This document shows, piece after piece, positions 1-41,346 of a stretch of DNA of 46,095 nt. Numbering within the stretch: the first letter of the stretch is position 1; the number at the start of each line of letters is the position of its first letter. A program made the position numbers and the translations under genes. The notes below the pieces were generated by a model. It did no database searches, was not told the origin of the DNA, and saw only the letters and a program-made list of their open reading frames with translations. The DNA comes from a virus. Taxonomy: Duplodnaviria; Heunggongvirae; Uroviricota; Caudoviricetes. The stretch lies in IMG/VR virus record IMGVR_UViG_2565956709_000007; one strand, written 5' to 3'.

Positions 1-1284
1 TTACAGACTTCTGGAAGGTTGCACAGCTCTTACAACACGCGGTTGATCTTCCGCAGCGTCTTCCAGCGCACTTAAATCACGGTCTTTCACTTCTGGCATT
101 TTCAGCGCAGAGATTAAACCAATCACTGAATATGCCATGATCATAATGGCGATCGGATACCAGGATTCCGTCATGGTGCAGAAAATACCCGCCAGGATAG
201 GACCAAAACCGGAAGCGATAAGACCACCAATTTCTTTAGAAATGGCCATCCGGGTAAAGCGGTTTTTACAGCCGAACATTTCTGCCATGGTAATGTTTTC
301 CAGAGCAAATAATCCCAGCACCGCACAGTTATGAATCACAATCAGTGCAACCATAATGGTGCTCGGGGCATAGCTTTTATCTACAATGATAGAAAGCATT
401 GGCCATGCCAGCACAATCGCGGAGGTATTCATAATAATATACGGGATCCGGCGACCAATTTTATCGGATAACCAACCAAGGAACGGAATGGTCATAAAGC
501 CGAGAATCGAACTAATCATCAATGCATCTGTTGGAATTGCTTTGTTAAACAATAACGTCTGCACTAAATAGCCTGCAAGGAAAGTCTGAATTAACCCGGA
601 GTTACCCGCCTGACCAAAACGCAGCCCTGTTGCCAGCCAGAAGGATTTGCTCTGGAACATGCTACCAGCAGGTGCAGGTTTTGCTGTGGGTTGGTTGCTG
701 TCATTAACCTTCTCAAAGACCGGGCTTTCTTTCAGATTCATACGTAACCAGATAGCAAAGACCATCACGACAACGCTCGCCAGGAACGGTATACGCCATC
801 CCCACGCCAGCAGTTCCTCTTTACTGAGAATGAAGAACATAAAGGCCCAGATTGCCGTTGCGCTCAAGGTTCCGCAGTTAGTTCCCATAGCTACAAATGA
901 GGAGATAATTCCGCGCTTACCTTTTGGTGCATATTCCGCCAGCATCGTACCGGCACCGGAAATTTCCGCACCTGCACCCAACCCCTGAATAATACGCAGC
1001 GTCACCAGCAAGATGGGGGCAAAAACACCAATCTGTGCATAGGTCGGTAACACACCAATTAAGGTGGTACAGATCCCCATCATGGTGATGGTAATAAAGA
1101 GCACTTTTTTACGCCCTATTCTGTCGCCCATTTTGCCGAAAATAAATGCTCCGACAATACGCGCCACATAACCTGCACCGTAGGTTCCCATTGCCAAAAT
1201 TAACGCCATTGCCGTTGATGATTCAGGAAAAAATATTTCATGAAACACTAACGCTGCGCCGAGCGAATATAACTGGAAATCCAT
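1..1284 (-). CDS. ydfJ: MFS metabolite:H+ symporter family transporter YdfJ (427 codons; appears to lack the N-terminal cytoplasmic tail of ProP/KgtP-type relatives, consistent with truncation by prophage insertion)
   Basis: ORF-track protein has 12-TM MFS architecture with the DWGWRIPF motif and aligns with ProP/KgtP from about their residue 30; stop codon at 1-3; in-frame stop two codons upstream of the ATG at 1284. Confidence 0.7.
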   Translation of the reverse strand: MDFQLYSLGAALVFHEIFFPESSTAMALILAMGTYGAGYVARIVGAFIFGKMGDRIGRKKVLFITITMMGICTTLIGVLPTYAQIGVFAPILLVTLRIIQGLGAGAEISGAGTMLAEYAPKGKRGIISSFVAMGTNCGTLSATAIWAFMFFILSKEELLAWGWRIPFLASVVVMVFAIWLRMNLKESPVFEKVNDSNQPTAKPAPAGSMFQSKSFWLATGLRFGQAGNSGLIQTFLAGYLVQTLLFNKAIPTDALMISSILGFMTIPFLGWLSDKIGRRIPYIIMNTSAIVLAWPMLSIIVDKSYAPSTIMVALIVIHNCAVLGLFALENITMAEMFGCKNRFTRMAISKEIGGLIASGFGPILAGIFCTMTESWYPIAIMIMAYSVIGLISALKMPEVKDRDLSALEDAAEDQPRVVRAVQPSRSL

Positions 1285-1523
1285 AATTCACAGATGTTTT
1301 TTCTCATTCTGTGGTTTCCTTGGCGCTTTCTAGGTTTTTTCAGATAGTTACATTTTTTCAAAAGCATCCTGAGTTCGATCTTACTATCTATCTGTGGCCT
1401 ATTTCTGTCCCATATATGCCCCAAAAAACACCCCAACAGATAAGCAGTCTTTTCATGGTGTTACGCGTAAAAACAATAACGGCTTGAAATTATTCAATAC
1501 ACTCTCGAAAGTGCATCAGCCAA

Positions 1524-1557
1524 CCGCAGAACGTTATTGCATACAACGTTTCTGCGG
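1524..1557. repeat. Imperfect inverted repeat (12-bp arms, 9-nt spacer, one bulge) with no adjacent T-run
   Basis: ccgcagaacgtt ... aacgtttctgcgg read directly. Confidence 0.4.
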
Positions 1558-2000
1558 CATATCACGAAACGATTACTTAATGACTGGGACTTCAGACCAC
1601 TCAATATCCGGTACAATTATGTATCAACGCAGTTTAACAACACCCTATATTTAATCCAGAGTGCGAGCAACGTTGTCCCTTTCTCTTTTGCACTCTTAAA
1701 ATATACGATTACTTAAGTGAAGATGCTTGACGAATCGCCAAATAAAACATCTTCATCAGCATAAAAATCCATATATGATTGAAAATTTAGTCATTAATAC
1801 CATTCATATCTGAATACTGACCTAATATGCTTACTAACCGTGAGAAATCTTTTTTTTCGACTTAATCACTCGAAATAAACTTTCACTCAATTGAAAACAA
1901 TTAGCTACAATTATCATTGCAATATCAAATCAAACATAACAACTTGCATAAATTCTCATGGGATACAGCATCAGTTGTGCCAAACACATAAGGAATTGAA

Positions 2001-2198
2001 ATGGACGGAGAAAGCTTTAACTTTGATGACAATGATATTGAATTTATTGCTTCAATGTATGCATCATGTAAATTATCAGGAAGTATCGCCCCCATAATGC
2101 ATATAATGGTTAGCATTCCAAAAAATAAGAAAAAACAATTCTACGAACGAGTTGAGCATTATTGTAGTTTATATTCCAATAAAAACCCACCTTCTTAA
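2001..2198 (+). CDS. Hypothetical 65-aa protein in the AT-rich left arm
   Basis: ORF with AAGGA 8 nt upstream of the ATG; no recognisable family. Confidence 0.2.
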   Translation: MDGESFNFDDNDIEFIASMYASCKLSGSIAPIMHIMVSIPKNKKKQFYERVEHYCSLYSNKNPPS

Positions 2199-2901
2199 AT
2201 TCGCTGCATTCTAGTGGATTCCATTAAGAAAACAATGACATACACTCAAACACATCTTTTTTATCAACAGTGAATTTCAGTTCGGCCAGTTTTTACCAGC
2301 TATTATAAAAATAGCATCCATATAAAGTTTTTACCCCACAGGTACAGCTGGCCATTCGATAACCGCACTAAGGAAGTGCCAACACGATATCAGCAAGACC
2401 CGATATTTCTTCCATGCCGCCAGCAACGATGTTAAGGTTAAATTAATTATAAAAAAATATATTATAACTCCATCTTCGCATTAAATTTCAACCTTTAATC
2501 TCCACACGGAACAAGTTGCATAGGTGACTATATTAGGAAAACTTATAACCACCAAAACATTTGCTTTGCAAACAAAAACAGTGACCATTGACTCTAAGAA
2601 AATTCCGATCTATTGTTAGGGTCATCAAAGTTACTTAACAGTATTCCGAAATGAAAATACAAAGCAAGCTAATTGTCTTATTAAACATTATCATTGCATT
2701 TATATTATTTGAGCTTTTAGCTCAAAAATTTGGTTTGAGTACATTATTTTAAAGCAAGATAAACAATATCGGGCACTCTAGTTTTTATAATTAACAATTA
2801 AACGTCCATAAAATGTTATTTACTTTTGTTCGCTATTGTCATATCTTAATATAGTGGCTTACGCCACTCTACTTTCATCACATTTTGTACGTTTATGTAC
2901 T

Positions 2902-2934
2902 CGCCATGAAGCTCTTTCATGGCGATTTTTTATT
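2902..2934 (+). terminator. Rho-independent terminator (10-bp GC-containing stem followed by T6)
   Basis: tcgccatgaa-gctct-ttcatggcga followed by tttttt. Confidence 0.5.
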
Positions 2935-3017
2935 CTTAATCCAAGAACATACTCCCTACCTATAGCAAAATCACTTTTTGAACAAAAGAATAACGTATTT
3001 AGGTAATCATTACGAAT

Positions 3018-3599
3018 TTACCCTATAGGTGCTACTGGCCATTCAATATCCGGTGCAGTTGTTGTATTAACACGGTTCAGCAACACCCGATACTTTTTCC
3101 AGGCTTCCAGCAACGAGTTTTCTTCCTCCGTTGCGATTTCCAGATCTACAGCATCCTGAAGTGGCGCAATATGCTCATTCGCTGCCTGCATCAGGCTGTT
3201 TTTTGTTTCTTCCGCCTCCCGGATCCGGAATAGTTTTTCTGCTTCTGCATCTTTCACCCAGGCTGTGCCGTTCCACTTCTGAAACTCCCCTTCCGGGGAT
3301 AACCAGGTGACATTTTCCGGTAATGAGCCGAGTTCAGAAATAAATAACGCGTCGCCGGAAGCCACGTCATAAACCGTTTTACCCCGATGATCTTCAACGA
3401 GATGCCACGATGACTCATCACTGTTGAAAACAGCCACGAAGCCAGCTGGAATATCTGGCGGTGCAATGTCGGTACTGTTTGCTGGCAGACCTGTATGAGG
3501 CGGAATATATGCATCACCTTCACCAATAAATTCATTAGTTCCGGACAGCAGATTATAAATTTTTATGGTCCGTGGTTGTTCACTCATTCTGAATGCCAT
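3018..3599 (-). CDS. tfa: Tail fiber assembly protein Tfa
   Basis: 193-aa product nearly identical over its length to my recollection of lambda Tfa ([18 protein letters not shown]...); start overlaps the stf stop. Confidence 0.9.
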
Positions 3600-6500
3600 T
3601 ATGCAAGCCTCACAATATAGTTAAATGCGATGTTTTTGACGGTGTTTTCCGCGTTACCAGCAGCGTTAACGGTGATGGTGTGTCCATGTGAACCAATCGC
3701 AACCGAGTGCGTATGCGCACCAATACCGACAGTATGTGCATGTGCACCTGCAGATGCTGCTGTGCCGGACAGCGAGTGGGTATGAGCACCATCTGATGAT
3801 GTCTTCCCTGCATTACGAGTCTGGCCACTACCGCTTGTTGTGCTCATAATCCCCGCGCTTGGATTTGAAATCGCGGTATAACCATTAGGGAAAATGCTCG
3901 TGTTCGTGCCACCAAATGCACCGGAACTCTTGTGTTGGTGCGCACCGGCACTATTTGCGGTCCCGCTAATACTATGGGTATGCGCCCCGGTGTTATTCGT
4001 GGATTTAGTGCCGTAATCAAACGACGATGTGGTTTTCGTCCCCAAATCCGTACTGGATGCGCTGGCGCTGTGGGTATGCGATTTAATGCCATCCTGTTCC
4101 TGAGACAATACGGCACGACCACTGGCGGGCTTGCCCTTAATCGTCCAGCCACGCATATCAGGGATCACGCCTGACGGATAAGCCGCTGCAAGTTTCGGGT
4201 AAGCAGATTTGTCAAAAGTCTGCCCCTGCATCAGGGCATAACCAGACGGAACGGTATCTGATGGCCACGGGATTGGTGCGCCAACTGGGTAGCTTTCTGG
4301 TGGAAGATTTTTCGAGGTATAAACTTCTGCCCAGCCTTCCTCAAAACCATAGCCATCTCTTGAGGAACGGTAGAACAGACCTCCATTTCTGTAATGCGCC
4401 TTCATCTGCAGGGTCCGGCAACTTCCGACTCCGGTATAGAAGTTAACCAGAATATAGGTGTCGCCAGAGCGGGTGACATTGTAAGCGCCTGATTCGGCAT
4501 TCCAGGGAACGCCACCATCCGCATCGGCATATGTATCCGTTGCCCTTCTGGCAAAAGCAGCCACATGCGCGGCGGTTAAAGTGATATCAGTAGAACCATC
4601 AAATGGAACACCGGATATTTTTCTTGCAGTCTGAAGTTTTGTAGCAGTTGCAGCATTACCAGTGGTGTTCTGATTACCCGTAGTGTTTACACCTGGAAGG
4701 TTAATATTTGCAGAACCGTCGAAAACAACTCCACCGATAGATCTTGCCGTCTGCAATTTCGTGGCTGTACTTGCATTACCATTCAATGAACCAGTTAATC
4801 CACCTGTAACAGACAACGGACCTGAAACTGTTCCTCCGGTTGTTGGCAGTGCTCCAATATCTGATGGTGTAGGTTTCTGATGTGAGCTATACATCGTATA
4901 AACAACACCATAGGTAACGCTGGAAGGCTTACTCGCTGAATATGTTGGCGAGGTATAAACAGAAACTGACGCATTTGCAGTACAATCCCAATGGATATTT
5001 ACACTCGTCGCATAATTGCCAATCTCAACGTAAATATCATATGTATCGCCGGATGTGTTGATCCAGGCGAAATTCGTTAATCCGACGGCTGTACGCTTCC
5101 ACAAAGCCCCGGTAATTCCTTTGGGGTTTCCATTGCCTGCTCGTAGAACCAGTTCTGAAATGCCTGCCTGATGTGGGGAACCGACGTTGTAACCAGCGCC
5201 ACCAATCAATGCGATGTAAACGATGGAACTCGCTTGTGGCATGGTAACCGTAGCCAGTTTGAACCACCCAGCCCCGCCAGAGAAAGACATCGTTACTGAA
5301 TTTAAAGTACCAATATCTTTCGGCGTTAATGTTATATCCGCAGTCAATGCTTTTCCGTTAACTTTTCGGTTAGATGGCACCCTGCTATTCGCATTGTCAT
5401 TGGCTGCTTTAACTGCTTTTGGCGTTGCGGCCAGCGATTCACTGGTGCTATCAACAGCACTGCTAAGTTTCACAACACCTTTAGTTGTAAGGCTTGCGTC
5501 TTCCATCGCAACTGCACCGGCAATCTCTTCAGCACGATCAGCAGCAGCTTCCGCACGGGTCGCAGCGGATTCAGCAGCAGTTTTGCTCTGAGATGCTGCC
5601 GTCGCACTGCCTGCCGCCTCTGTTGCCTTCGTGGATGCCGTCGTGGCGCTGCTCTTCGCTGCTGACGCCTGTCTGGTCGCCTCATCTTTTGAAGCAGACG
5701 CAGATGATGCCGATGACGCCGCCGAACTGGCGGACGATGCGGCAGCCGTTTTTGAGGATTCTGCACTGGTTTCCGACGCTTTCGCGTTCGTTTCGGATGT
5801 CTTCGCTGCGGAAGCAGACCTCGCTGCTGCGCTGGCCTGTTCAGTGGCTTCGCCAGCCTTCGTTGTGGCTGTTGAAGCAGACGATGCGGCGCTTTCTGCC
5901 GATTTTCCGGCGGCGGTGGCACTGGCTGAGGCCTGCCCGGCACTTGTTGACGCTGCACTGGCAGACGACGCAGCCGCTGTTTTTGAGCCTGCCGCAGCTG
6001 AGGCACTCTGTTCCGCTGCCGTTTCAGAAGACCTGGCGTTTGTCTCAGACGTTTTTGCCGCCTTCGCAGAATTTGCTGCCGCCGTTGCCGAGGAAGCTGC
6101 GCTGCTGGCGCTCGAGGCTGCGCTCGTTTCTGATGATTTCGCTGCCTCTTTTGAGGCCGCCGCATCCCGGGCTGAGGTGGCAGCTTCTGACGCCTTCGTG
6201 GTCGCGGCGGATGCAGAAGTGGCTGCTGATTGTTGTGACGCTGCCGCATTCGTTTCTGACGTTTTCGCCGCAGCGGCACTGGTAGCTGCCGCGCTTTTTG
6301 AGGACTCTGCAGCAGCAGCACTTTTCGATGCTTCACTGGCCTTTGTTGATGCCGTTCCTGCGCTGGAAGATGCTGACTGAGCCGACGACGCGGCCTGTCC
6401 GGCTGACGTGCTGGCTGCGCGTGCTGAGCCTGCAGCATCAGTCGCATGGGTTGCCGCCTCACGGGCTGATGTGCCGGCATCGCTGGCTGACTTCTTCGCG

Positions 6501-6877
6501 GCTGCCGTGTTCTGTGCCACCGCGGACGCGTTACGCGCCACCTCTTCCACCATCAGTTCAAAACGGCGCAGTGCCTCAGGACGGGCATCATCCTCCGTCA
6601 TGGCACCGAGAAAATTATTCAGCGTACCGGGTCGAGAATCTTCATACACGGTGATGGTCCCGGCATGTGACGGCGGGAATCCCTCCACCAACAGAATAAC
6701 GCTGTACTGCCCGTACTCAACGTCCATGCTGTAACGCCCGGCTTCATCCGGATTTTCTGAGGCAAGCGTGTTCACCACCACCGTGTTGCTGTTACGTTTT
6801 GCTTTCAGCTGGATTGTGCAGTTCTGTACCGGTTTTCCTGTGCCGTCTTTCAGTACACCTGAAATCTTTACTGCCAT
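3599..6877 (-). CDS. stf: Side tail fiber protein Stf, with a long Ala/Ser/Thr-rich repeat region and His-rich C-terminal repeats
   Basis: N-terminus [20 protein letters not shown]... and C-terminus ...[31 protein letters not shown] match lambda Stf; track ORF starts two codons earlier (6883). Confidence 0.85.
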
Positions 6878-6885
6878 ATTCACCC

Positions 6886-6915
6886 CACAAAAAAGCCCGC
6901 CTGAACCGGCGGGCT
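6886..6915 (-). terminator. Rho-independent terminator downstream of lom
   Basis: agcccgcc-tgaacc-ggcgggct hairpin with an A6 run on the plus strand (U-run on the minus transcript). Confidence 0.5.
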
Positions 6916-6941
6916 GTCATAACACTGTGTTACCTGGCTAA

Positions 6942-7541
6942 TCAGAATTTATAACCGACACCCACGATGAAACCGTCAGTGCGCCAGTCACCACTGCCGG
7001 AGCCTTCATAAGCAATATCAATGGCCACGGATTCGGTCGGGTTAAACTGCACGCCAGCCCCCCACGCCAGAGACGTGTTGCTGTGGCGACCGTCATCACT
7101 TCCGGTCAGCACATCGTGCTTTTTCCCCTTGTTGTCAGTTACGCGGAGATAATCCCCGGAGAAAGTCGACACACGGCTGTAAGCCACACCCGCCATCGCA
7201 TACGCGCTGAACCATTCATTCACGCGCACAGACGGCCCCGCCATTACGCTGAACCAGCGGTTACGAACGGAATCTTCATGCCAGCGGGTATCGCTGTAAC
7301 GGGTCAGCTGGCGATTCTTGTCTCCTGCATAGCTGAACGACGTCTCCAGCCCCAGTGTGTCCGTAAACTCATAACGGTATTTCACGTTAATCCCGTTCAG
7401 ATCATCACTGCCGGGAACGTTCGTCGAGGCATGAAGATACCCCGCGCTCAGCGTGGACTGATGTTCAGACGCCCATGCAGGCGCACCGGATACGGCCAGA
7501 CAAATGGCTGCGGACAAAATTGCTGCACAAACTTTACGCAT
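6942..7541 (-). CDS. lom: Outer membrane protein Lom (Ail/Lom family)
   Basis: 199-aa product with signal peptide and C-terminus ...AYEGSGSGDWRTDGFIVGVGYKF as in lambda Lom. Confidence 0.9.
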   Translation of the reverse strand: MRKVCAAILSAAICLAVSGAPAWASEHQSTLSAGYLHASTNVPGSDDLNGINVKYRYEFTDTLGLETSFSYAGDKNRQLTRYSDTRWHEDSVRNRWFSVMAGPSVRVNEWFSAYAMAGVAYSRVSTFSGDYLRVTDNKGKKHDVLTGSDDGRHSNTSLAWGAGVQFNPTESVAIDIAYEGSGSGDWRTDGFIVGVGYKF

Positions 7542-26704: not shown

Positions 26705-26991
26705 TTTGTCGCTCCATGCGTTTGTTCTTCACTTGTCGCTAAAAATATAACTTCAAATCTTTGAGCGTGGAAGTGTGGAAGTCACTGCGCGTTGATCTTG
26801 CATACATCGGTCGTTTGTTTCCCACCTGGCATATCAGAAAAACCAGGTTTTATAGCGGAATCAATACTATGTATTTTCCACCTGACTTTTGACATAAATC
26901 ATCAATAAAACATATAAAGGTCAGACCAGATTGAAACGATAAAAACGATCTTGCAAACTACGTGCCCTCATACCATATGGAAGGTTTATCT

Positions 26992-27402
26992 ATGGATCAG
27001 GTAGTCATTTTTAAACAAATATTTGATAAAGTTCGAAACGATTTAAACTATCAATGGTTTTATTCTGAGCTAAAACGTCACAATGTCTCACATTACATTT
27101 ACTATTTAGCTACAGATAATGTTCATATTGTATTAAAAAATGATAATACAGTGTTATTAAAGGGCCTAAAAAACATTGTGTCTGTCAAATTTTCAAAGGA
27201 TAGGCATCTTATAGAAACGACCGCTAATAAGCTGAAATCCAGTGAGATCACATTTCAGGAATACAGAAGAAACCTTGCTAAAGCAGGAGTTTTTCGGTGG
27301 GTTACAAATATCCACGAACAAAAAAGATATTACTATACCTTTGATAATTCATTACTCTTTACTGAAAACATACAGAGCACATCACAAATATTTCCACACT
27401 AA
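26992..27402 (+). CDS. DUF1398-family protein (YdfO/YbcV-like)
   Basis: 136-aa AT-rich ORF opposite to the late operon, GGAAGG 7 nt upstream of ATG 26992; same relative position as ydfO/ybcV in Qin/DLP12; family from memory. Confidence 0.5.
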
Positions 27403-29073: not shown

Positions 29074-29388
29074 CTAACAACCCGTAATCGAGTTATCAGA
29101 ACTGTTAATTTTTATGGTATACCGCGCCTCTGAACAGGGGCGCGTTTCTGGCAACAGCTCGTCCCCTTCACATAACCCGGCAGCAACATCCAGGAAGACC
29201 TGTCTGATGCTCCTTCTGGCTGCTGACTCATAAAACTCCAGCGCGGCACCTTCAACACGGTCCAGCGAGATGTCCAGGTCAAAAATTTCACCGTCAAAGC
29301 GTTTTTTGTCCCGTAACGCTAAAGTTACCGTAACTTTATTCTCAAAATTGCGGATCCCTTTCACAATCAGTTCATATTTTTGAGTCAT
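29074..29388 (-). CDS. YdfR-like (DUF1327-type) protein inserted between holin and endolysin
   Basis: 104-aa ORF at the position occupied by ydfR in the Qin lysis cassette; assignment from memory. Confidence 0.45.
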   Translation of the reverse strand: MTQKYELIVKGIRNFENKVTVTLALRDKKRFDGEIFDLDISLDRVEGAALEFYESAARRSIRQVFLDVAAGLCEGDELLPETRPCSEARYTIKINSSDNSITGC

Positions 29389-29392
29389 TGAA

Positions 29393-29608
29393 TTACTCTC
29401 CCCGTGCAGCCTTACGCTTGTCTTCTTTAATCTTGAAATAAAGGTTTGTCAGGTACGTCAGCAGGCCAAATACCAGGCTACCCAGCACACCTATTGCTGC
29501 CCACTGTGAGGGCGTGACTTTATCGAGCAGCTGTAAAAACCAGTAGCCAGCACTGCCTGCGGAGGTGCCGTAGGCAATGCCTGTTGAAATTTTGTCCATG
29601 GATTTCAT
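29393..29608 (-). CDS. S: Pinholin (S21-type) with dual start motif
   Basis: Product [71 protein letters not shown]; GGAGG upstream; two ATGs three codons apart. Confidence 0.85.
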
Positions 29609-29711
29609 AGCCTCACCTCCGCACGGAACGGATGGCATAGTTATTATGTGTAGGCTTCCAGACACATCAATCAGAGCCATAATTGATATATATGCTGGAG
29701 ACGATGCAATA

Positions 29712-29734
29712 TAAAAAGCTCGCCGTAGCGAGCT
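29712..29734 (-). terminator. Rho-independent terminator downstream of the lipoprotein cassette
   Basis: agctcgc-cgta-gcgagct with an A5 run on the plus strand (U-run on the minus transcript). Confidence 0.5.
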
Positions 29735-29859
29735 AATAAAATGTATTTCTCTGATATTATGTTTATTTGTATTAGCTCAGACTTGACATCACAGGTTTCG
29801 TATATAGAACATCATCAAATCTGTCAGTTTGCTATGAATGAGATATAGTAATTGAAGAG

Positions 29860-30255
29860 CTAACCTCGCATGTCAAAGCCAGATTTCTGAAAATCTCTGT
29901 AGACTTCCGGATTGTTGAAGGCCGGAAATTTGGCTTTATGAGCTGCGGACTTTATCGCTTCGCAATAGGCTTTATCACCGTTACTGGTAGATATTTTTAA
30001 CGCCGTGCCATCCTGAGAGAATTCCATATGCAACCTGCATTTTTTCCCTTTCCAGTTATGCGGCTCATCAAGTTTGGCATTAATTGCAGCTCTGATTCCC
30101 CGCGCTTGCGCCCCCCATTCATCCTGATCATCCCAGCGTCCTGAACTGCAACTACCTGTAGCAGTAGTTTTGTGGCAATCTGAAGGGTGTAAAGGTGTGC
30201 ATCCCGCAACAAAACCGACCCAAAAAGTCAACATAACGATTTTCTTTAATCCCAC
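29860..30255 (-). CDS. Lipoprotein with divergent TolA domain-III-like C-terminal domain
   Basis: GTG start with GAGGAG upstream; signal peptide MGLKKIVMLTFWVGFVAGC (lipobox); C-terminal ...KGKKCRLHMEFSQDGTALKIS..GDKAYCEAIKSAAHKAKFPAFNNPEVYRDFQ paralogous to the next gene. Confidence 0.5.
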   Translation of the reverse strand: MGLKKIVMLTFWVGFVAGCTPLHPSDCHKTTATGSCSSGRWDDQDEWGAQARGIRAAINAKLDEPHNWKGKKCRLHMEFSQDGTALKISTSNGDKAYCEAIKSAAHKAKFPAFNNPEVYRDFQKSGFDMRG

Positions 30256-30405
30256 TTCTTGCTCCTCAATCCATTAAAATCTCAGCAATAGTAGTTGTTA
30301 CGTCCGCCACTGGCTCAGAGCTGACTATCCGCTAAATTTAGCTCAGTGCCGTAGTTGTGTCAGAACAAACCTAAGCCGAAACCGTTTATTACAAAACAAT
30401 AAATA

Positions 30406-30834
30406 TCAGGGTTTAAAATCCAGCACCCCATTTTGAAATACTTTATATACTTCCGGCGAAGGGGGGGCAGGTATATCAGCATTCTTTATCGCATTCATCG
30501 CTTCACGACATAAATCGAGGTCTCCACTTTCTCTTTTAACCTCCAGTAGAAGGCCATTCGGGGCCATATGCATTCTCAGTGTACACTCTTTTCCTGAATA
30601 CTTACTCGCATCCCCGAACTGTTTTTCGATGGCGCTCTTGATTTGATGGGCATACAGACGGATATCCTCACTAACATCAGAAGTACGTTCAGATGAACTC
30701 ACATACTGTGTCTCTATTGCTTTATCGGAGTAATATGATGTACGGTCATGATAATTTGTCGATACAGCATCAGTGCACCCGATAATAATCCCACTAATAA
30801 TCAACGTAAGAATTGATGCGCTACGAAAACCCAT
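30406..30834 (-). CDS. Lipoprotein with TolA domain-III-like C-terminal domain
   Basis: Signal peptide with lipobox IIGC; C-terminal HQIKSAIEKQFGDASKYSGKECTLRMHMAPNGLLLEVKRESGDLDLCREAMNAIKNADIPAPPSPEVYKVFQNGVLDFKP closely resembles my recollection of the E. coli TolA C-terminus. Confidence 0.55.
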   Translation of the reverse strand: MGFRSASILTLIISGIIIGCTDAVSTNYHDRTSYYSDKAIETQYVSSSERTSDVSEDIRLYAHQIKSAIEKQFGDASKYSGKECTLRMHMAPNGLLLEVKRESGDLDLCREAMNAIKNADIPAPPSPEVYKVFQNGVLDFKP

Positions 30835-30863
30835 TTTTCCTCACATATGTCATATAGTAAAGG

Positions 30864-30893
30864 ATTATATATACCGTTGTTTTGGACGCTCAA
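30864..30893 (-). promoter_or_regulatory. Candidate sigma70 promoter for the lipoprotein cassette
   Basis: Minus-strand TTGAGC, 18-bp spacer, TATAAT about 30 nt upstream of the ATG at 30834. Confidence 0.35.
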
Positions 30894-31367
30894 ACAGCGA
30901 ATCAGATCAAATAAAACGCACATTTGTTAACATTTACACAAAGTCTGCGTGGGATATTCTGAAAGAATATCCATAATGTGGAGAGAATCTATTGAAGTGC
31001 ATGGTGCCGGGTGCCTCCCGGTGAATTCAGTACCAGCACCTGAATCCGCGATTATCCCATATACCTACTCGCTGATTGCCCCTCCGCACAGGGGGATTCA
31101 CCATGCCAGTTTCTTTTAACAAACTCCCCGCAAACCAGAGAACAGTCAACCGCCTGAATTGTGAAGTATTTAAAAATTTCTCCCGCTAACTGATACCCGG
31201 CTAACAGTCTGGCGTTTTCTTTTTCAGCAACGGGAAAGCAACAACCACCACACCCGCCACCAGCACACCGTCAGCCAGCACTGACATTATCCGGCTGCTG
31301 CAATGCCATTCACAAAAACAGTAAGCAATCACTTTTTACCGTAACAGGTGATAATCCAGATATGTAT

Positions 31368-31721
31368 CTACCCCAGATGAGTAATCCGAAGTTCATCCAT
31401 ACCACAGGTCCTGGCTATTCTGTTGTACTCCTGAACAAGAGCAAATAATTCTGAATTAGCAACCATGAACTCATCGCAAACCCTCTGTATAGCATCACTA
31501 TTCAGAATAATAACGTCTCTTCCCGAAAGACGATCAGGAGTACAAAACAAAACTGTCAAACGGCTGAAGGCCTTTGCTCGTGCTGCATTGACTATATCAA
31601 TACGCTGCCTAAGGATGAAACACCCCGACGCCTCATCAATATTCACTCTACCCACACCATATGAATGATAAATATTTAATGCTGAAAAAACCATTAGACG
31701 GTATAACAAACACTCAATCAA
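31368..31721 (-). CDS. Hypothetical protein (117 codons, poor translation signals; may be a decayed gene)
   Basis: Long ORF in AT-rich DNA downstream of tRNA-Arg; no recognisable family; no clear RBS. Confidence 0.25.
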   Translation of the reverse strand: MIECLLYRLMVFSALNIYHSYGVGRVNIDEASGCFILRQRIDIVNAARAKAFSRLTVLFCTPDRLSGRDVIILNSDAIQRVCDEFMVANSELFALVQEYNRIARTCGMDELRITHLG

Positions 31722-31831
31722 TACTTAACAGAACTTTTATTTTTGACAAACATATAATATTTTCAACAAGATCCTGAGCCAGGTATATTTCAGTATAAGG
31801 CTCTGCCGGAAGGAATCTGGAAGAATGAATA

Positions 31832-31908
31832 TGGCGCGCTGTACTGGATTCGAACCAGTGACCGATTGCTTAGAAGGCAATTGCTCTGTCCGGCTGAGCT
31901 AACAACGC
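31832..31908 (-). tRNA. tRNA-Arg (anticodon UCU)
   Basis: Cloverleaf folded by hand: acceptor GCGTTGT/ACAGCGC, D-arm GCTC..GAGC, anticodon stem ATTGC/GCAAT with loop CTTCTAA, T-arm ACTGG-TTCGAAT-CCAGT, 3' GCCA. Confidence 0.85.
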
Positions 31909-31942
31909 TGAATACCGATAATGGACCGCCATCGGGGACCCG

Positions 31943-31954
31943 CCCCCCCCCCCC
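31943..31954. repeat. Homopolymeric C12 (G12 on the minus strand) tract between the two tRNA genes
   Basis: cgcccccccccccccgcacc read directly. Confidence 0.9.
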
Positions 31955-32015
31955 GCACCAACAACCCTGTTATCGTGTCGTCTGCTCTTCCTGATAAGCT
32001 CATGGCGGTTTGTGA

Positions 32016-32091
32016 TGGTGGCCCTTGCTGGATTTGAACCAGCGACCTGGCGATTATGAGTCGCTCGCTCTCACCACTGAGCTAAAGGACC
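32016..32091 (-). tRNA. tRNA with anticodon CAU (Ile2/ileX-like; Met-type not excluded)
   Basis: GGTCCTTTAGCTCAGTGGTGAGAGCGAGCGACTCATAATCGCCAGGTCGCTGGTTCAAATCCAGCAAGGGCCACCA folds as a cloverleaf and resembles E. coli ileX. Confidence 0.8.
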
Positions 32092-32130
32092 GGGAGCAGA
32101 ATAATAACGGTCCGTAATTAATTCCGCAAT

Positions 32131-32152
32131 AAAAAACCCGCTCGGTGGCGGG
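32131..32152 (-). terminator. tR'-like terminator downstream of the late promoter
   Basis: cccgc-tcggtg-gcggg with an A6 run on the plus strand, between Q and the tRNA genes. Confidence 0.5.
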
Positions 32153-32201
32153 TTGTAGAAACTCTTCTAACGTCAGGTATAAAAAGCCCATCGTTATGAC
32201 G

Positions 32202-32229
32202 AATTTACCACAGATTCCGGAAAAATCAA
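32202..32229 (-). promoter_or_regulatory. Candidate late promoter pR' (with qut expected to overlap)
   Basis: Minus-strand TTGATT, 16-bp spacer, TAAATT immediately downstream of the Q stop. Confidence 0.3.
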
Positions 32230-32234
32230 CCTTG

Positions 32235-33056
32235 TTACCTAGTTACCTTTTTTAACTGCCGCTCAGCCCATGCTTCTTCAATATCAAACCGGGTCACCAG
32301 CGCATCATAGAATTTCTTAACTGTTTTTTCCCATGACGCGCGTGTTATCTGGTTTGTCACCTCGCATATAGCATTAAATGCCTCCGTTGATGGTAGTCTT
32401 TCATAGCCACGACCACCACAACGCTGGCAGTCTCTGATAACAGGCATACCACGTTTTACCGACTCTTCACGGTGAATGGCGACACCACGCCCACGGCAAT
32501 CCTTACAGACGGTGGAAACCTCACCCTTTCCGCCACACTCCGGACAGGCAACTTTTACCACCTCCCTGACTTTTTTCCATTCTTCCCAGTAAGACGGATA
32601 CACACCTTTCGTACACTTTGCCCATACCGGCGGCTTACCATCCGGATACTGGACCTTGTTTGTAAAAACTACGCTTTCAATAAATTTTTCCCCATAGCAA
32701 CAAGGGCACTGCTTTTTACTCGCTGCGCTGCGGGCATAATCCTCAAAAGCGTACGAAGCCATAATGCGCATCACTACCGGTTTTATTTCTGCCGGAAGTT
32801 TTCTCAACGCCGCCACACGATCGCACCGACTGAGTGCATAATCTGCCAGTAATTCTGTTGCCCGCGCCCTGTCATTCATACTGATGCCCATCTTCCCCAG
32901 GAACGCAGAAAACCCCATCTCAGCCCGATTCTGTGTCATGCCCTGCGCGGCCATCACATCAGTGATACTCAGCGCATCTTTTGACGTTGAGGCCGATGCA
33001 TCGGTCAGGCAAGGGGATTTTGGGGAGTAGTATTTCGGTAAATCTTCCAGTTTCAT
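32235..33056 (-). CDS. Putative late antiterminator Q (QuuQ-like, multiple CxxC zinc motifs)
   Basis: 273-aa product with CPCC, CPECGGKG..CKDCRGRG, CQRCGGRG motifs; position immediately upstream of pR'/tR'/tRNAs/lysis genes. Confidence 0.5.
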   Translation of the reverse strand: MKLEDLPKYYSPKSPCLTDASASTSKDALSITDVMAAQGMTQNRAEMGFSAFLGKMGISMNDRARATELLADYALSRCDRVAALRKLPAEIKPVVMRIMASYAFEDYARSAASKKQCPCCYGEKFIESVVFTNKVQYPDGKPPVWAKCTKGVYPSYWEEWKKVREVVKVACPECGGKGEVSTVCKDCRGRGVAIHREESVKRGMPVIRDCQRCGGRGYERLPSTEAFNAICEVTNQITRASWEKTVKKFYDALVTRFDIEEAWAERQLKKVTR

Positions 33057-35227: not shown

Positions 35228-35383
35228 TTACTCCTCAGGTTCGTAGACTGTGAAGACAGCGACCTCCATCTGGCCGGTTCGGATTCGTACCTCGCAGAGG
35301 TCTTTCCTCGTTACCAGTGCCGTCACTATGACGGTTAAACAGATGACGATCAGGGCGATTAACATCGCCTTTTGCTGCTTCAT
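35228..35383 (-). CDS. hok: Hok/Gef-family type I toxin (HokD/RelF-like)
   Basis: 51-aa product MKQQKAMLIALIVICLTVIVTALVTRKDLCEVRIRTGQMEVAVFTVYEPEE; AAGGAG upstream; an in-frame ATG 19 codons further upstream (35440). Confidence 0.8.
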   Translation of the reverse strand: MKQQKAMLIALIVICLTVIVTALVTRKDLCEVRIRTGQMEVAVFTVYEPEE

Positions 35384-35641
35384 AGCCTGCTTCTCCTTGC
35401 CTTTCGGCACGTAAGAGGCTAACCTAGATTTGCCGTTCATAGATTGAGCCTCAGATTAATGTTAAGCGTCTTGCAGGACGCGTAATGTTAACTGGGGCTT
35501 TTCTCTATCTGCCTTTGGTGTTCATGCCTGAGGCAGATAGCCTCAAGCACCCGCAGTCATTCTACTTAACTAAGATTTCCCCGCAAACCGTTTTTGTCCA
35601 GCACAATAAATATCCAACTAAACCAATGGAGTTCGCTGTAT

Positions 35642-41287: not shown

Positions 41288-41346
41288 TTTTCTGGTGACG
41301 TTTGGCGGTATCAGTTTTACTCCGTGACTGCTCTGCCGCCCTTTTT
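41288..41346 (+). ncRNA. dicF: DicF small RNA
   Basis: tttctggtgacgtttggcggtatcagttttactccgtgactgctctgccgcccttttt matches my recollection of E. coli DicF, including the 3' terminator hairpin. Confidence 0.8.

Follow-up and report, generated by a model that had tools for sequence, protein, structure and literature searches.

Paired TolA domain III lipoproteins in a prophage cassette as possible decoys for Tol-dependent colicins and filamentous phages

The viral sequence IMGVR_UViG_2565956709_000007 (IMG/VR), analyzed over its whole length of 46,095 nucleotides (the window), is a lambdoid, mEp460-like prophage. Two adjacent genes on its minus strand were found to encode small predicted lipoproteins, P2 and P1, each consisting of a signal peptide, a linker, and the C-terminal domain III of TolA (TolAIII). 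TolAIII is the common entry handle for group A colicins and for phages of the Ff, If1, IKe, and CTXphi type, and within Tol-Pal it serves as the contact that transmits force. We tentatively propose that P1 and P2 compete with native TolA for incoming colicins and for the filamentous-phage protein g3p, thus acting as decoys, a reading which we consider quite possible, if somewhat short of probable. Both genes had been described in an earlier reading of the same DNA (the original prediction), in which the open reading frames (ORFs; Table 1) and the quoted peptide strings were correct.

The homology itself is not new, because the domain is already named in RefSeq and both proteins are grouped in PHROG 5772, a family of "unknown function". 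What appears to be new is the recognition of P1 and P2 as lipoprotein-tethered, motor-less TolAIII domains; a large mobile-element family also appears to be new, with two lineages joined in one prophage cassette, as does a natural counterpart that pairs TolAIII with a TonB C-terminal domain. In agreement with the original prediction, which knew of no characterized system of this kind, no functional study of a lipoprotein-tethered TolAIII was found in the open-access full-text literature, where the genes appear as annotations only.

TolA domain III in P1 and P2

The assignment of TolAIII to both proteins was borne out by profile searches. Pfam family PF06519 (TolA C-terminal; gathering score 25) matched P2 with 82.6 bits (E = 2.4e-23) and P1 with 54.6 bits (E = 1.3e-14), and the only Pfam families matched by either protein were TolA and TonB_2. 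A phmmer search with P2 against the Protein Data Bank (PDB) retrieved the TolAIII chains 1s62, 3qdp, 2x9a, and 1tol with E values of about 1e-27 to 1e-28. Identity to E. coli TolAIII amounted to 60.5% for P2 (86 residues, TolA 336-421) and to 33.8% for P1; P1 and P2 shared 28%. Among full-length TolA proteins, that of E. coli was the nearest relative of the P2 domain (other representatives reached at most 55.8%), a result that fits mimicry of the host TolA. Both TolAIII cysteines were invariant in 26 sequences.

AlphaFold2 (AF2) models reached a predicted local distance difference test score of about 90 over the domain (P2, residues 54-142; P1, residues 40-131) and less than 50 over signal peptide and linker. 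The predicted order of secondary structure elements, namely helix, two strands, two helices, and a C-terminal strand, is that of the TolAIII fold. When the models were searched with Foldseek, P2 superposed on 2x9a_B with a root mean square deviation (rmsd) of 0.6 Å and a template modeling (TM) score of 0.93, and P1 on 3qdp with 1.1 Å and 0.89. All top matches were E. coli TolAIII (rmsd 0.6-1.7 Å, TM score 0.81-0.93 relative to the target), and TonB C-terminal domains were found as distant matches only.

P1 and P2 are not TolA orthologues, since domain I, the transmembrane segment coupling TolA to TolQR, and the helical domain II are both missing. Their matches to TolA profiles span only positions 265-387. 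Both scored below the cut-off of 213 for NF007065 (P2, 107.8 bits; P1, 53.7 bits). For TIGR02794 (cut-off 59.45), P2 reached 75.6 from the domain alone and P1 47.2. Compared with E. coli TolAIII (residues ~329-421; 1S62, 1TOL, 2X9A, 3QDP/3QDR), the two proteins share the Pfam family, the fold of three helices and a three-stranded sheet, and both cysteines. They differ from E. coli TolA in having a predicted lipid anchor and a short disordered linker in place of a motor connection, and in being encoded on mobile elements outside the tol-pal operon.

TolB, colicin N, and the N1 domain of g3p bind TolAIII by beta-strand addition at strand beta3, where D418 and K420 provide backbone hydrogen bonds for TolB, the colicin N translocation domain (ColN-T), and g3p-N1; the substitutions D418P and K420P abolish all three interactions and cause a full tol phenotype, and beta-strand propensity outweighs sequence in this binding (Ridley & Lakey, PMC4339652). 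Colicin A uses the opposite edge of TolAIII, beta2 (PMC4339652). P2 ends with VLDFKP, of which LDFKP corresponds exactly to TolA L417-P421 in beta3. With an identical beta3 strand, P2 would be structurally equipped for the same ligands, namely TolB, colicin N, and g3p. For P1, which ends with GFDMRG and retains in its beta3 (FDMRG) an Asp, a beta-former, and a basic residue, such binding is plausible but less certain. The original prediction had also counted Pal among the contacts of TolAIII; this view is outdated, as a review finds no TolAIII-Pal binding with purified proteins and names the N-terminus of TolB as the endogenous partner (PMC7391070).

Lipoprotein anchors and gene annotation

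The signal peptides predicted for P2 (MGFRSASILTLIISGIIIG-C) and P1 (MGLKKIVMLTFWVGFVAG-C) both have a basic n-region, a hydrophobic core, and a lipobox of the pattern [LVI][ASTVI][GAS]C. In P2 the sequence GIIIG-C20-TD provides the lipobox IIGC with Cys20, and in P1 the sequence GFVAG-C19-TP provides VAGC with Cys19; both proteins carry Thr at position +2. Among 26 aligned homologues, the lipobox Cys was invariant, the preceding Gly was nearly so, and Asp never occurred at +2, in support of the original prediction of two lipoproteins. An Asp at +2 is the signal for Lol avoidance. With Thr instead of Asp at this position, sorting to the outer membrane is predicted by the +2 rule, and P1 and P2 are probably outer-membrane-anchored lipoproteins.

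The GTG start codon of P1 at 30255, the one used in the original prediction, is backed by a conserved start context, GAGGAGCAA..(G/A)TG with the Shine-Dalgarno sequence GAGGAG, which is kept in the pO157, IncK, Enterobacter, and Serratia loci. The Prokaryotic Genome Annotation Pipeline (PGAP) starts P1 at an internal ATG (124 amino acids), and the basic n-region is thereby lost. Both genes are already named in RefSeq/PGAP as encoding TolA C-terminal-domain proteins; P2, which comprises domain III only, is labeled "cell envelope integrity protein TolA" (gene tolA). This name is misleading and may follow from the TIGR02794 score of P2, which exceeds the cut-off on the domain alone. In locus L001 the genes annotated in this way lie at 6261-6635 and 6807-7235.

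Distribution, mobility, and selection of the cassette

Identity of the region 29600-31000 was 99.9% with phage mEp460_ev081 and 100% with prophages in many strains, E. coli 55989 among them. Prevalence was determined in 5,426 complete E. coli genomes. The P2 gene was present in 888 of them (782 records at ≥99% identity, 97 at 80-90%), nearly always on the chromosome, and the P1 gene in 1,269, with 825 copies on chromosomes and 525 on plasmids. Both genes together as one unit (≥80% of 29600-31000) occurred in 774 genomes (~14%), i.e., in about one in seven. Furthermore, 154 viral contigs of IMG/VR encode a relative. Of the best 80 of these contigs, 43 showed homology to the window confined to 29410-31020 (99% identity); the flanks there belong to a Rac-like backbone, in which Q and the endolysin are different ones and trkG is present. 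Since the same block has different flanks, the cassette has moved between phage backbones. The STnc100 element at one end of the block and the holin gene at the other are likely to have served as homology arms for this transfer. With promoter-like and terminator-like sites, low guanine-plus-cytosine (GC) content, a slot between conserved phage modules, and at least two backbones, the cassette has the makeup of a phage moron.

Both genes appear to be real and under purifying selection, as the ratio of nonsynonymous to synonymous substitutions (dN/dS) was 0.06-0.09 for the P1 domain in pairwise comparisons with copies from pO157, IncK, Enterobacter, and Serratia, and for the P2 domain it was 0.28 in comparison with a variant in prophage L017 of strain 89-3156; the linkers evolve faster.

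The original prediction had placed the genes at the position where Stx phages carry stx. In an Stx2a phage the order is Q, methylase, three tRNA genes, stx2AB, STnc100 element, nanS-p, and holin, so that the cassette lies within the stx slot broadly defined, between Q and holin. The exact site directly after the tRNA genes is not the one occupied by the cassette; in prophage L017 a solitary P2-type variant (82% nucleotide identity) lies there, directly 3' of the tRNA genes at the site of stx2AB, with nanS-p between the variant and the holin gene. The cassette thus shares with stx and other morons the slot downstream of Q and the tRNA genes and the association with STnc100, but its cargo is unrelated to Shiga toxin and it follows the sRNA element instead of the tRNA genes.

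More generally, cargo in the Q-to-holin slot is bordered by copies of STnc100 (RF02076, 87-172 bits; gathering score 47). One was found just downstream of stx2B in the Stx2a phage (L018, 3815-4026), which may correspond to the anti-sRNA AsxR, and five lie in tandem in L017 (4682-4894, 2727-2922, 2454-2663, 2194-2392, and 1943-2132), where the element adjoins the P2-type variant. Another is located upstream of P2 in a Rac-like backbone (L059, 3125-3311). The element may be a recombination arm for cassette swapping, because homology between backbones breaks inside it (window ~31020-31126).

The P1 lineage and other lipoproteins with TolA domain III

P1 had been regarded as a divergent paralogue of P2. 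Its TolAIII fold was confirmed, but it is not merely a paralogue, since it belongs to a separate and far more widespread lineage. A tandem duplication as origin of the pair was rejected: P1 and P2 are 28% identical, fall into separate lineages, and are differently distributed. P1-type proteins formed at least 370 clusters at 90% identity. P1 was 78-89% identical to the products of solitary chromosomal genes in Enterobacter, Citrobacter, Serratia, Leclercia, and other genera; such genes were scattered over unrelated sites on the chromosome in some 30 species-representative genomes, with carriers including Enterobacter, Leclercia, Lelliottia, Kluyvera, Klebsiella, Raoultella, Pluralibacter, Pantoea, Citrobacter, Yokenella, Serratia, and Rouxiella. 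No conserved gene neighborhood was detected among 31 species loci. The Serratia gene adjoins the defense genes GmrSD and HEPN.

About 600 plasmids carry a P1-type copy (80-90% identical). On pO157 the gene lies between the leading region psiB-psiA-hok and toxB, and on conjugative plasmids of the I complex (IncK2/Z, IncI1/B/O) directly downstream of nikA-nikB. In three of these loci (L013, 8815-9246; L015, 6965-7396; L016, 6965-7396) it lies 68 nucleotides 3' of the relaxase gene nikB and shares its strand; with this spacing and orientation it may be co-transcribed with the oriT operon. Two contigs from metagenome-assembled genomes assigned to Lachnospiraceae and Treponemataceae (L020 and L021) contain a P1-type gene with 89% identity to the E. 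coli copy and are probably mis-binned enterobacterial plasmid or phage DNA.

The P1 linker, including CHKTTATGSC and GRWDDQDEWG, was near-invariant across genera. The linker motif SSGRWDDQDEWG was considered as a mimic of colicin E9's TolB box, GASDGSGWSSENNPW, and rejected, as the DG[ST]GW core is absent from P1 and P2 and the spacing of the Trp residues differs. In the AF2 model the motif seems to form an N-terminal extension of helix 1.

The combination of a lipoprotein anchor with TolAIII is a broad architecture, because a lipobox was present in 42 of the 68 short proteins (100-170 amino acids) among the top 150 relatives; in total, 333 relatives were retrieved from 1.84 billion representatives. 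More distant genes of this kind occur on 660 Klebsiella plasmid records. The 10-kb ColRNAI plasmid NZ_CP028788.2 of Klebsiella pneumoniae (L009) carries genes for a colicin-like tRNase bacteriocin, for immunity, and for lysis and, at 1841-2574, a lipoprotein TolA_C gene (lipobox LTAC) overlapping a gene for a secreted TonB_C protein. The pair is mentioned in PMC10269471 as an annotation only. Plasmids similar to NZ_CP028788.2 account for much of the 660 records. On Klebsiella IncFIB/FII plasmids, such as pCuAs (L011, 5229-6258), a TolA_C gene lies directly 3' of a Thioredoxin_2/DsbA-like gene, and this thioredoxin-fold neighbor may be relevant to formation of the TolAIII disulfide.

Possible function of tethered TolA domain III

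As decoys, P1 and P2 would be sorted to the inner leaflet of the outer membrane, where a linker of 25-35 residues would let the tethered TolAIII roam the space just beneath the membrane and rival the inner-membrane-anchored TolA for ligands that use beta-strand addition. The main targets would be Tol-dependent (group A) colicins and bacteriocins, bound through their translocation domains, and pilus-specific filamentous phages, bound through g3p-N1. A decoy devoid of the TolQR motor would trap the invader unproductively and leave the lysogen tolerant to Tol-dependent colicins and to phages of the Ff/If1 type. Two diverged domains could widen the range of ligands, with P2 mimicking E. coli TolAIII and P1 representing a family conserved across genera. 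The cassette promoter would provide expression in the lysogen, and read-through of transcripts antiterminated by Q would add strong late expression. Since TolAIII binds ColN-T and g3p-N1 with affinities of ~1 µM, compared with ~40 µM for TolB (PMC4339652), a moderate amount of tethered TolAIII should catch colicin or g3p preferentially and largely spare Tol-Pal. Whereas domain, fold, lipobox, purifying selection, and occurrence in different backbones were computed, outer-membrane sorting and competition with TolA are what we infer.

The contexts of the homologues, taken together, point to protection more than to lysis and favor a decoy function. TolA_C and TonB_C proteins encoded side by side on a bacteriocin plasmid provide one domain for each bacteriocin import route, which fits a protective role. 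The same holds for the position of P1-type genes next to nikB on plasmids whose pili attract the TolA-dependent phage If1, which adsorbs to I pili. The g3p of phage IF1 binds TolAIII (PDB 2x9a). The scatter of P1-type genes, resembling that of orphan immunity genes, fits as well, as does the place of the Serratia gene beside GmrSD/HEPN. It is conceivable, though we would not call it probable, that mobile elements of Enterobacterales, from prophages and conjugative, virulence, or bacteriocin plasmids to chromosomal islets, carry an unrecognized class of immunity consisting of tethered or secreted TolAIII decoys, joined on some plasmids by TonB C-terminal ones, which confer broad tolerance to bacteriocins and to pilus-specific filamentous phages; the P1-P2 cassette would be its prophage form.

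Several observations weigh against a decoy function. In P2, helix alpha2 has diverged more than any other element, with 6 of 16 residues identical, and P1 is just 34% identical to TolAIII and has FDMRG as its beta3 strand. PADLOC returned neither a match nor a model for P1 or P2. The cassette is placed within the late operon, beside the holin gene, and its putative promoter and terminator are no more than consensus matches. That many genera stably carry P1-type genes on the chromosome could indicate a housekeeping role in the envelope. Finally, E. coli leaks periplasmic proteins when TolAIII is present in the periplasm at high dose, an effect used as a secretion tool (PMC6195910), so that competition could mainly hit TolB and Tol-Pal.

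This last point leads to the main rival explanation, which we consider rather unlikely. P1 and P2 would be modulators of Tol-Pal whose tethered TolAIII binds the N-terminus of TolB and blocks native TolA from pulling TolB off Pal; the resulting partial tol phenotype (loosening, hypervesiculation, leakage) would aid lysis or the release of virions or cargo. The N-terminus of TolB does use the beta3 site that is identical in P2 (PMC4339652, PMC7391070), an outer-membrane tether would bring TolAIII to TolB-Pal complexes, and exported TolAIII causes leakage, as noted above. The location of the cassette downstream of Q and immediately upstream of the holin gene, in the slot of a released toxin in Stx phages, would also suit such a role, but a putative promoter and terminator of its own argue that it is not simply a late gene, the phage already possesses a complete lysis set (holin, endolysin, Rz), and the solitary P2-type variant is parted from the holin gene by nanS-p. 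Homologues on plasmids and at scattered chromosomal sites have no lysis genes nearby. Moreover, TolAIII binds TolB only weakly, and the cost expected of a constitutive tol phenotype contrasts with the stable retention of P1-type genes, on which purifying selection is strong. Modulation of Tol-Pal and a decoy function are compatible and could depend on dose, with protection in the lysogen and loosening of the envelope after Q read-through.

More doubtful still is a role as an envelope or virulence lipoprotein which uses beta-strand addition to bind another ligand, such as CpoB/YbgF, porins, or a component of the conjugation apparatus, with an effect like that of Bor, Iss, or TraT, i.e., serum resistance, exclusion in conjugation, or stress tolerance. 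TolAIII has been called an interaction hub (PMC7391070), the near-invariant linker of P1 hints at a second binding element, and P1-type genes occur as chromosomal singletons in about 30 species of Enterobacterales, next to toxB on the virulence plasmid pO157, and after nikB beside transfer genes. However, no conserved neighbor points to a partner, P2 tracks E. coli TolAIII including the identical ligand-binding strand, and it is difficult to account for a TonB C-terminal domain as partner on a bacteriocin plasmid other than via the two import pathways. The genes could, finally, be non-functional debris, that is, fragments of host tolA which were captured by illegitimate recombination and mis-called as genes. 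Phages do acquire fragments of host genes, and PGAP calls P2 "TolA" although it consists of domain III only. This is nevertheless highly improbable: each ORF has gained a lipoprotein signal peptide and a Shine-Dalgarno sequence, the ratio omega is 0.06-0.33, the sequences are 99-100% conserved in ~780 genomes, and the proteins form hundreds of clusters at 90% identity and a PHROG family with confident AF2 domains. In our judgement, the data on selection and distribution refute it.

A decoy function would resemble and reverse known mechanisms. The small lipoproteins Cor (phi80/HK022/mEp), Llp (T5), and TraT (F) are likewise encoded on mobile elements and block entry of phages or colicins, and exclusion of the Cor type occurs in the mEp phage group, to which the prophage is related. 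These proteins obstruct an outer-membrane receptor (FhuA, OmpA), whereas P1 and P2 are proposed to mimic a periplasmic co-receptor; no sequence or family relation of P1 or P2 to Cor, Llp, TraT, or defense families was found in Pfam, PHROG, or PADLOC. Periplasmic g3p or colicin T-domains confer tolerance to group A colicins and Ff phages. In that case the ligand saturates TolA, in contrast to P1 and P2, where surplus TolAIII would soak up the ligand; the competition takes place at the same beta-strand-addition site of TolAIII (PMC4339652). Engineered periplasmic TolAIII, for which PMC6195910 cites Levengood-Freyermuth 1993 and Wan & Baneyx 1998, is likewise exported without domains I and II and acts in trans on the envelope. 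It is artificial, soluble, and overproduced, unlike P1 and P2, which are natural and diverged, predicted to be lipid-anchored, equipped with a putative promoter of their own, and under purifying selection. Periplasmic TolAIII is also reported to cause colicin tolerance. The Klebsiella ColRNAI TolA_C protein is a mobile-element lipoprotein too (39% identical to P2 over the domain), but it belongs to a different lineage, is linked to a bacteriocin operon, and has a TonB C-terminal domain and not a second TolAIII as its partner.

If P1 and P2 are decoys, they would add a co-receptor decoy to the exclusion and tolerance lipoproteins of mobile elements. Lysogenic conversion (in ~14% of complete E. 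coli genomes) and some 600 plasmids would then spread tolerance to colicins and phages at the level of an entire pathway; whole classes of bacteriocins would be covered, unlike the toxin-specific immunity known so far. This would bear on bacteriocin and phage therapeutics, on the choice of hosts for phage display, and on competition in the gut, and it could explain why a gene of this kind lies beside the relaxase gene on conjugative plasmids, which expose their host to pilus-specific phages. If TolB is titrated instead, P1 and P2 would inhibit Tol-Pal, which has been proposed as an antibiotic target, in a natural setting and possibly drive vesiculation in pathogenic E. coli.

Organization of the locus

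The features of the locus are listed in Table 1. The original prediction had given the pair a promoter and a terminator of its own, a position between tRNA genes and holin, and an elevated AT content; candidate sites for the former two were found again, as were the position and the composition. In a scan of 3.1 kb (29300-32400), the promoter-like site scored highest; the number of such sites (10) was not above that expected by chance (6.6 ± 2.9). It is located ~30 nucleotides 5' of the P2 ATG, which is preceded by the Shine-Dalgarno sequence GAGGAA. Conservation lends the promoter no support, since it does not reach into the region upstream of P2 when the solitary P2-type variant of strain 89-3156 is compared. 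A weak promoter-like site was also seen in the spacer between P2 and P1 (30363-30335). The terminator-like hairpin has a 7-bp stem with five GC pairs and lies 126 nucleotides 3' of the P1 stop codon, directly before the holin gene. The GC content of the cassette was 41.6%, compared with 49.8% for the window; relative to the immediate flanks (44-54%) the contrast is modest.

Table 1. Coordinates of the cassette and of neighboring features in the window
Feature	Position	Strand	Description
Late antiterminator Q	32235-33056	-	PF03589, E = 2e-54
tRNA-Arg(TCT) and tRNA-Met/Ile(CAT)	31832-31908, 32016-32091	-	Downstream of Q
STnc100-family small RNA (sRNA) gene	30945-31135	-	Just upstream of the cassette; RF02076, 114 bits (gathering score 47)
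Sigma70-like promoter	30864-30893	-	TTGAGC, 18-nucleotide spacer, TATAAT; 10/12 consensus match
P2 lipoprotein	30406-30834	-	ATG start, 142 amino acids; signal peptide, disordered linker 21-53, TolA domain III 54-142
Intergenic spacer	30256-30405	-	150 nucleotides
P1 lipoprotein	29860-30255	-	GTG start, 131 amino acids; Cys-loop linker, TolA domain III ~44-131
Intrinsic-terminator-like hairpin	29707-29734	-	AGCTCGC...GCGAGCT stem 29734-29717, then TTTTTAT, tail to ~29707
Holin, EssD-type	29393-29608	-	First gene of the lysis cassette; named after the identical region of E. coli 55989 (PGAP)
Unit common to the Rac-like backbone	29410-31020	-	3' part of sRNA element, promoter, P2, P1, terminator, holin

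Along the minus strand, the order of genes is RusA, Q, a hairpin, tRNA-Met/Ile, tRNA-Arg, a 117-amino-acid ORF, a DUF3927 ORF, the STnc100 sRNA, and the cassette, followed on its 3' side by holin, DUF1327, lysozyme, and Rz. The terminator-like hairpin downstream of Q (32154-32135) is likely to be tR'. The 117-amino-acid ORF (31368-31721, minus strand, TTG start), located between the tRNA genes and the sRNA element, had no Pfam match and no annotation in the 55989 record; it is conserved in L050.

Elsewhere in the window, three further Rfam matches scored above the gathering score, namely IS009 RNA at 3058-3256 (minus strand), which overlaps the region of the tail-fibre assembly gene, the antitoxin RNA sok at 35378-35552 (minus strand), with hokD nearby according to the 55989 annotation, and the sRNA DicF at 41290-41341 (plus strand). 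Additionally, a strongly AT-rich patch at 26800-27400 (GC 0.31-0.32) holds a DUF1398 gene on the plus strand (26962-27402), whereas the lysis and terminase genes around it are on the minus strand; this patch looks like another moron-like insertion.

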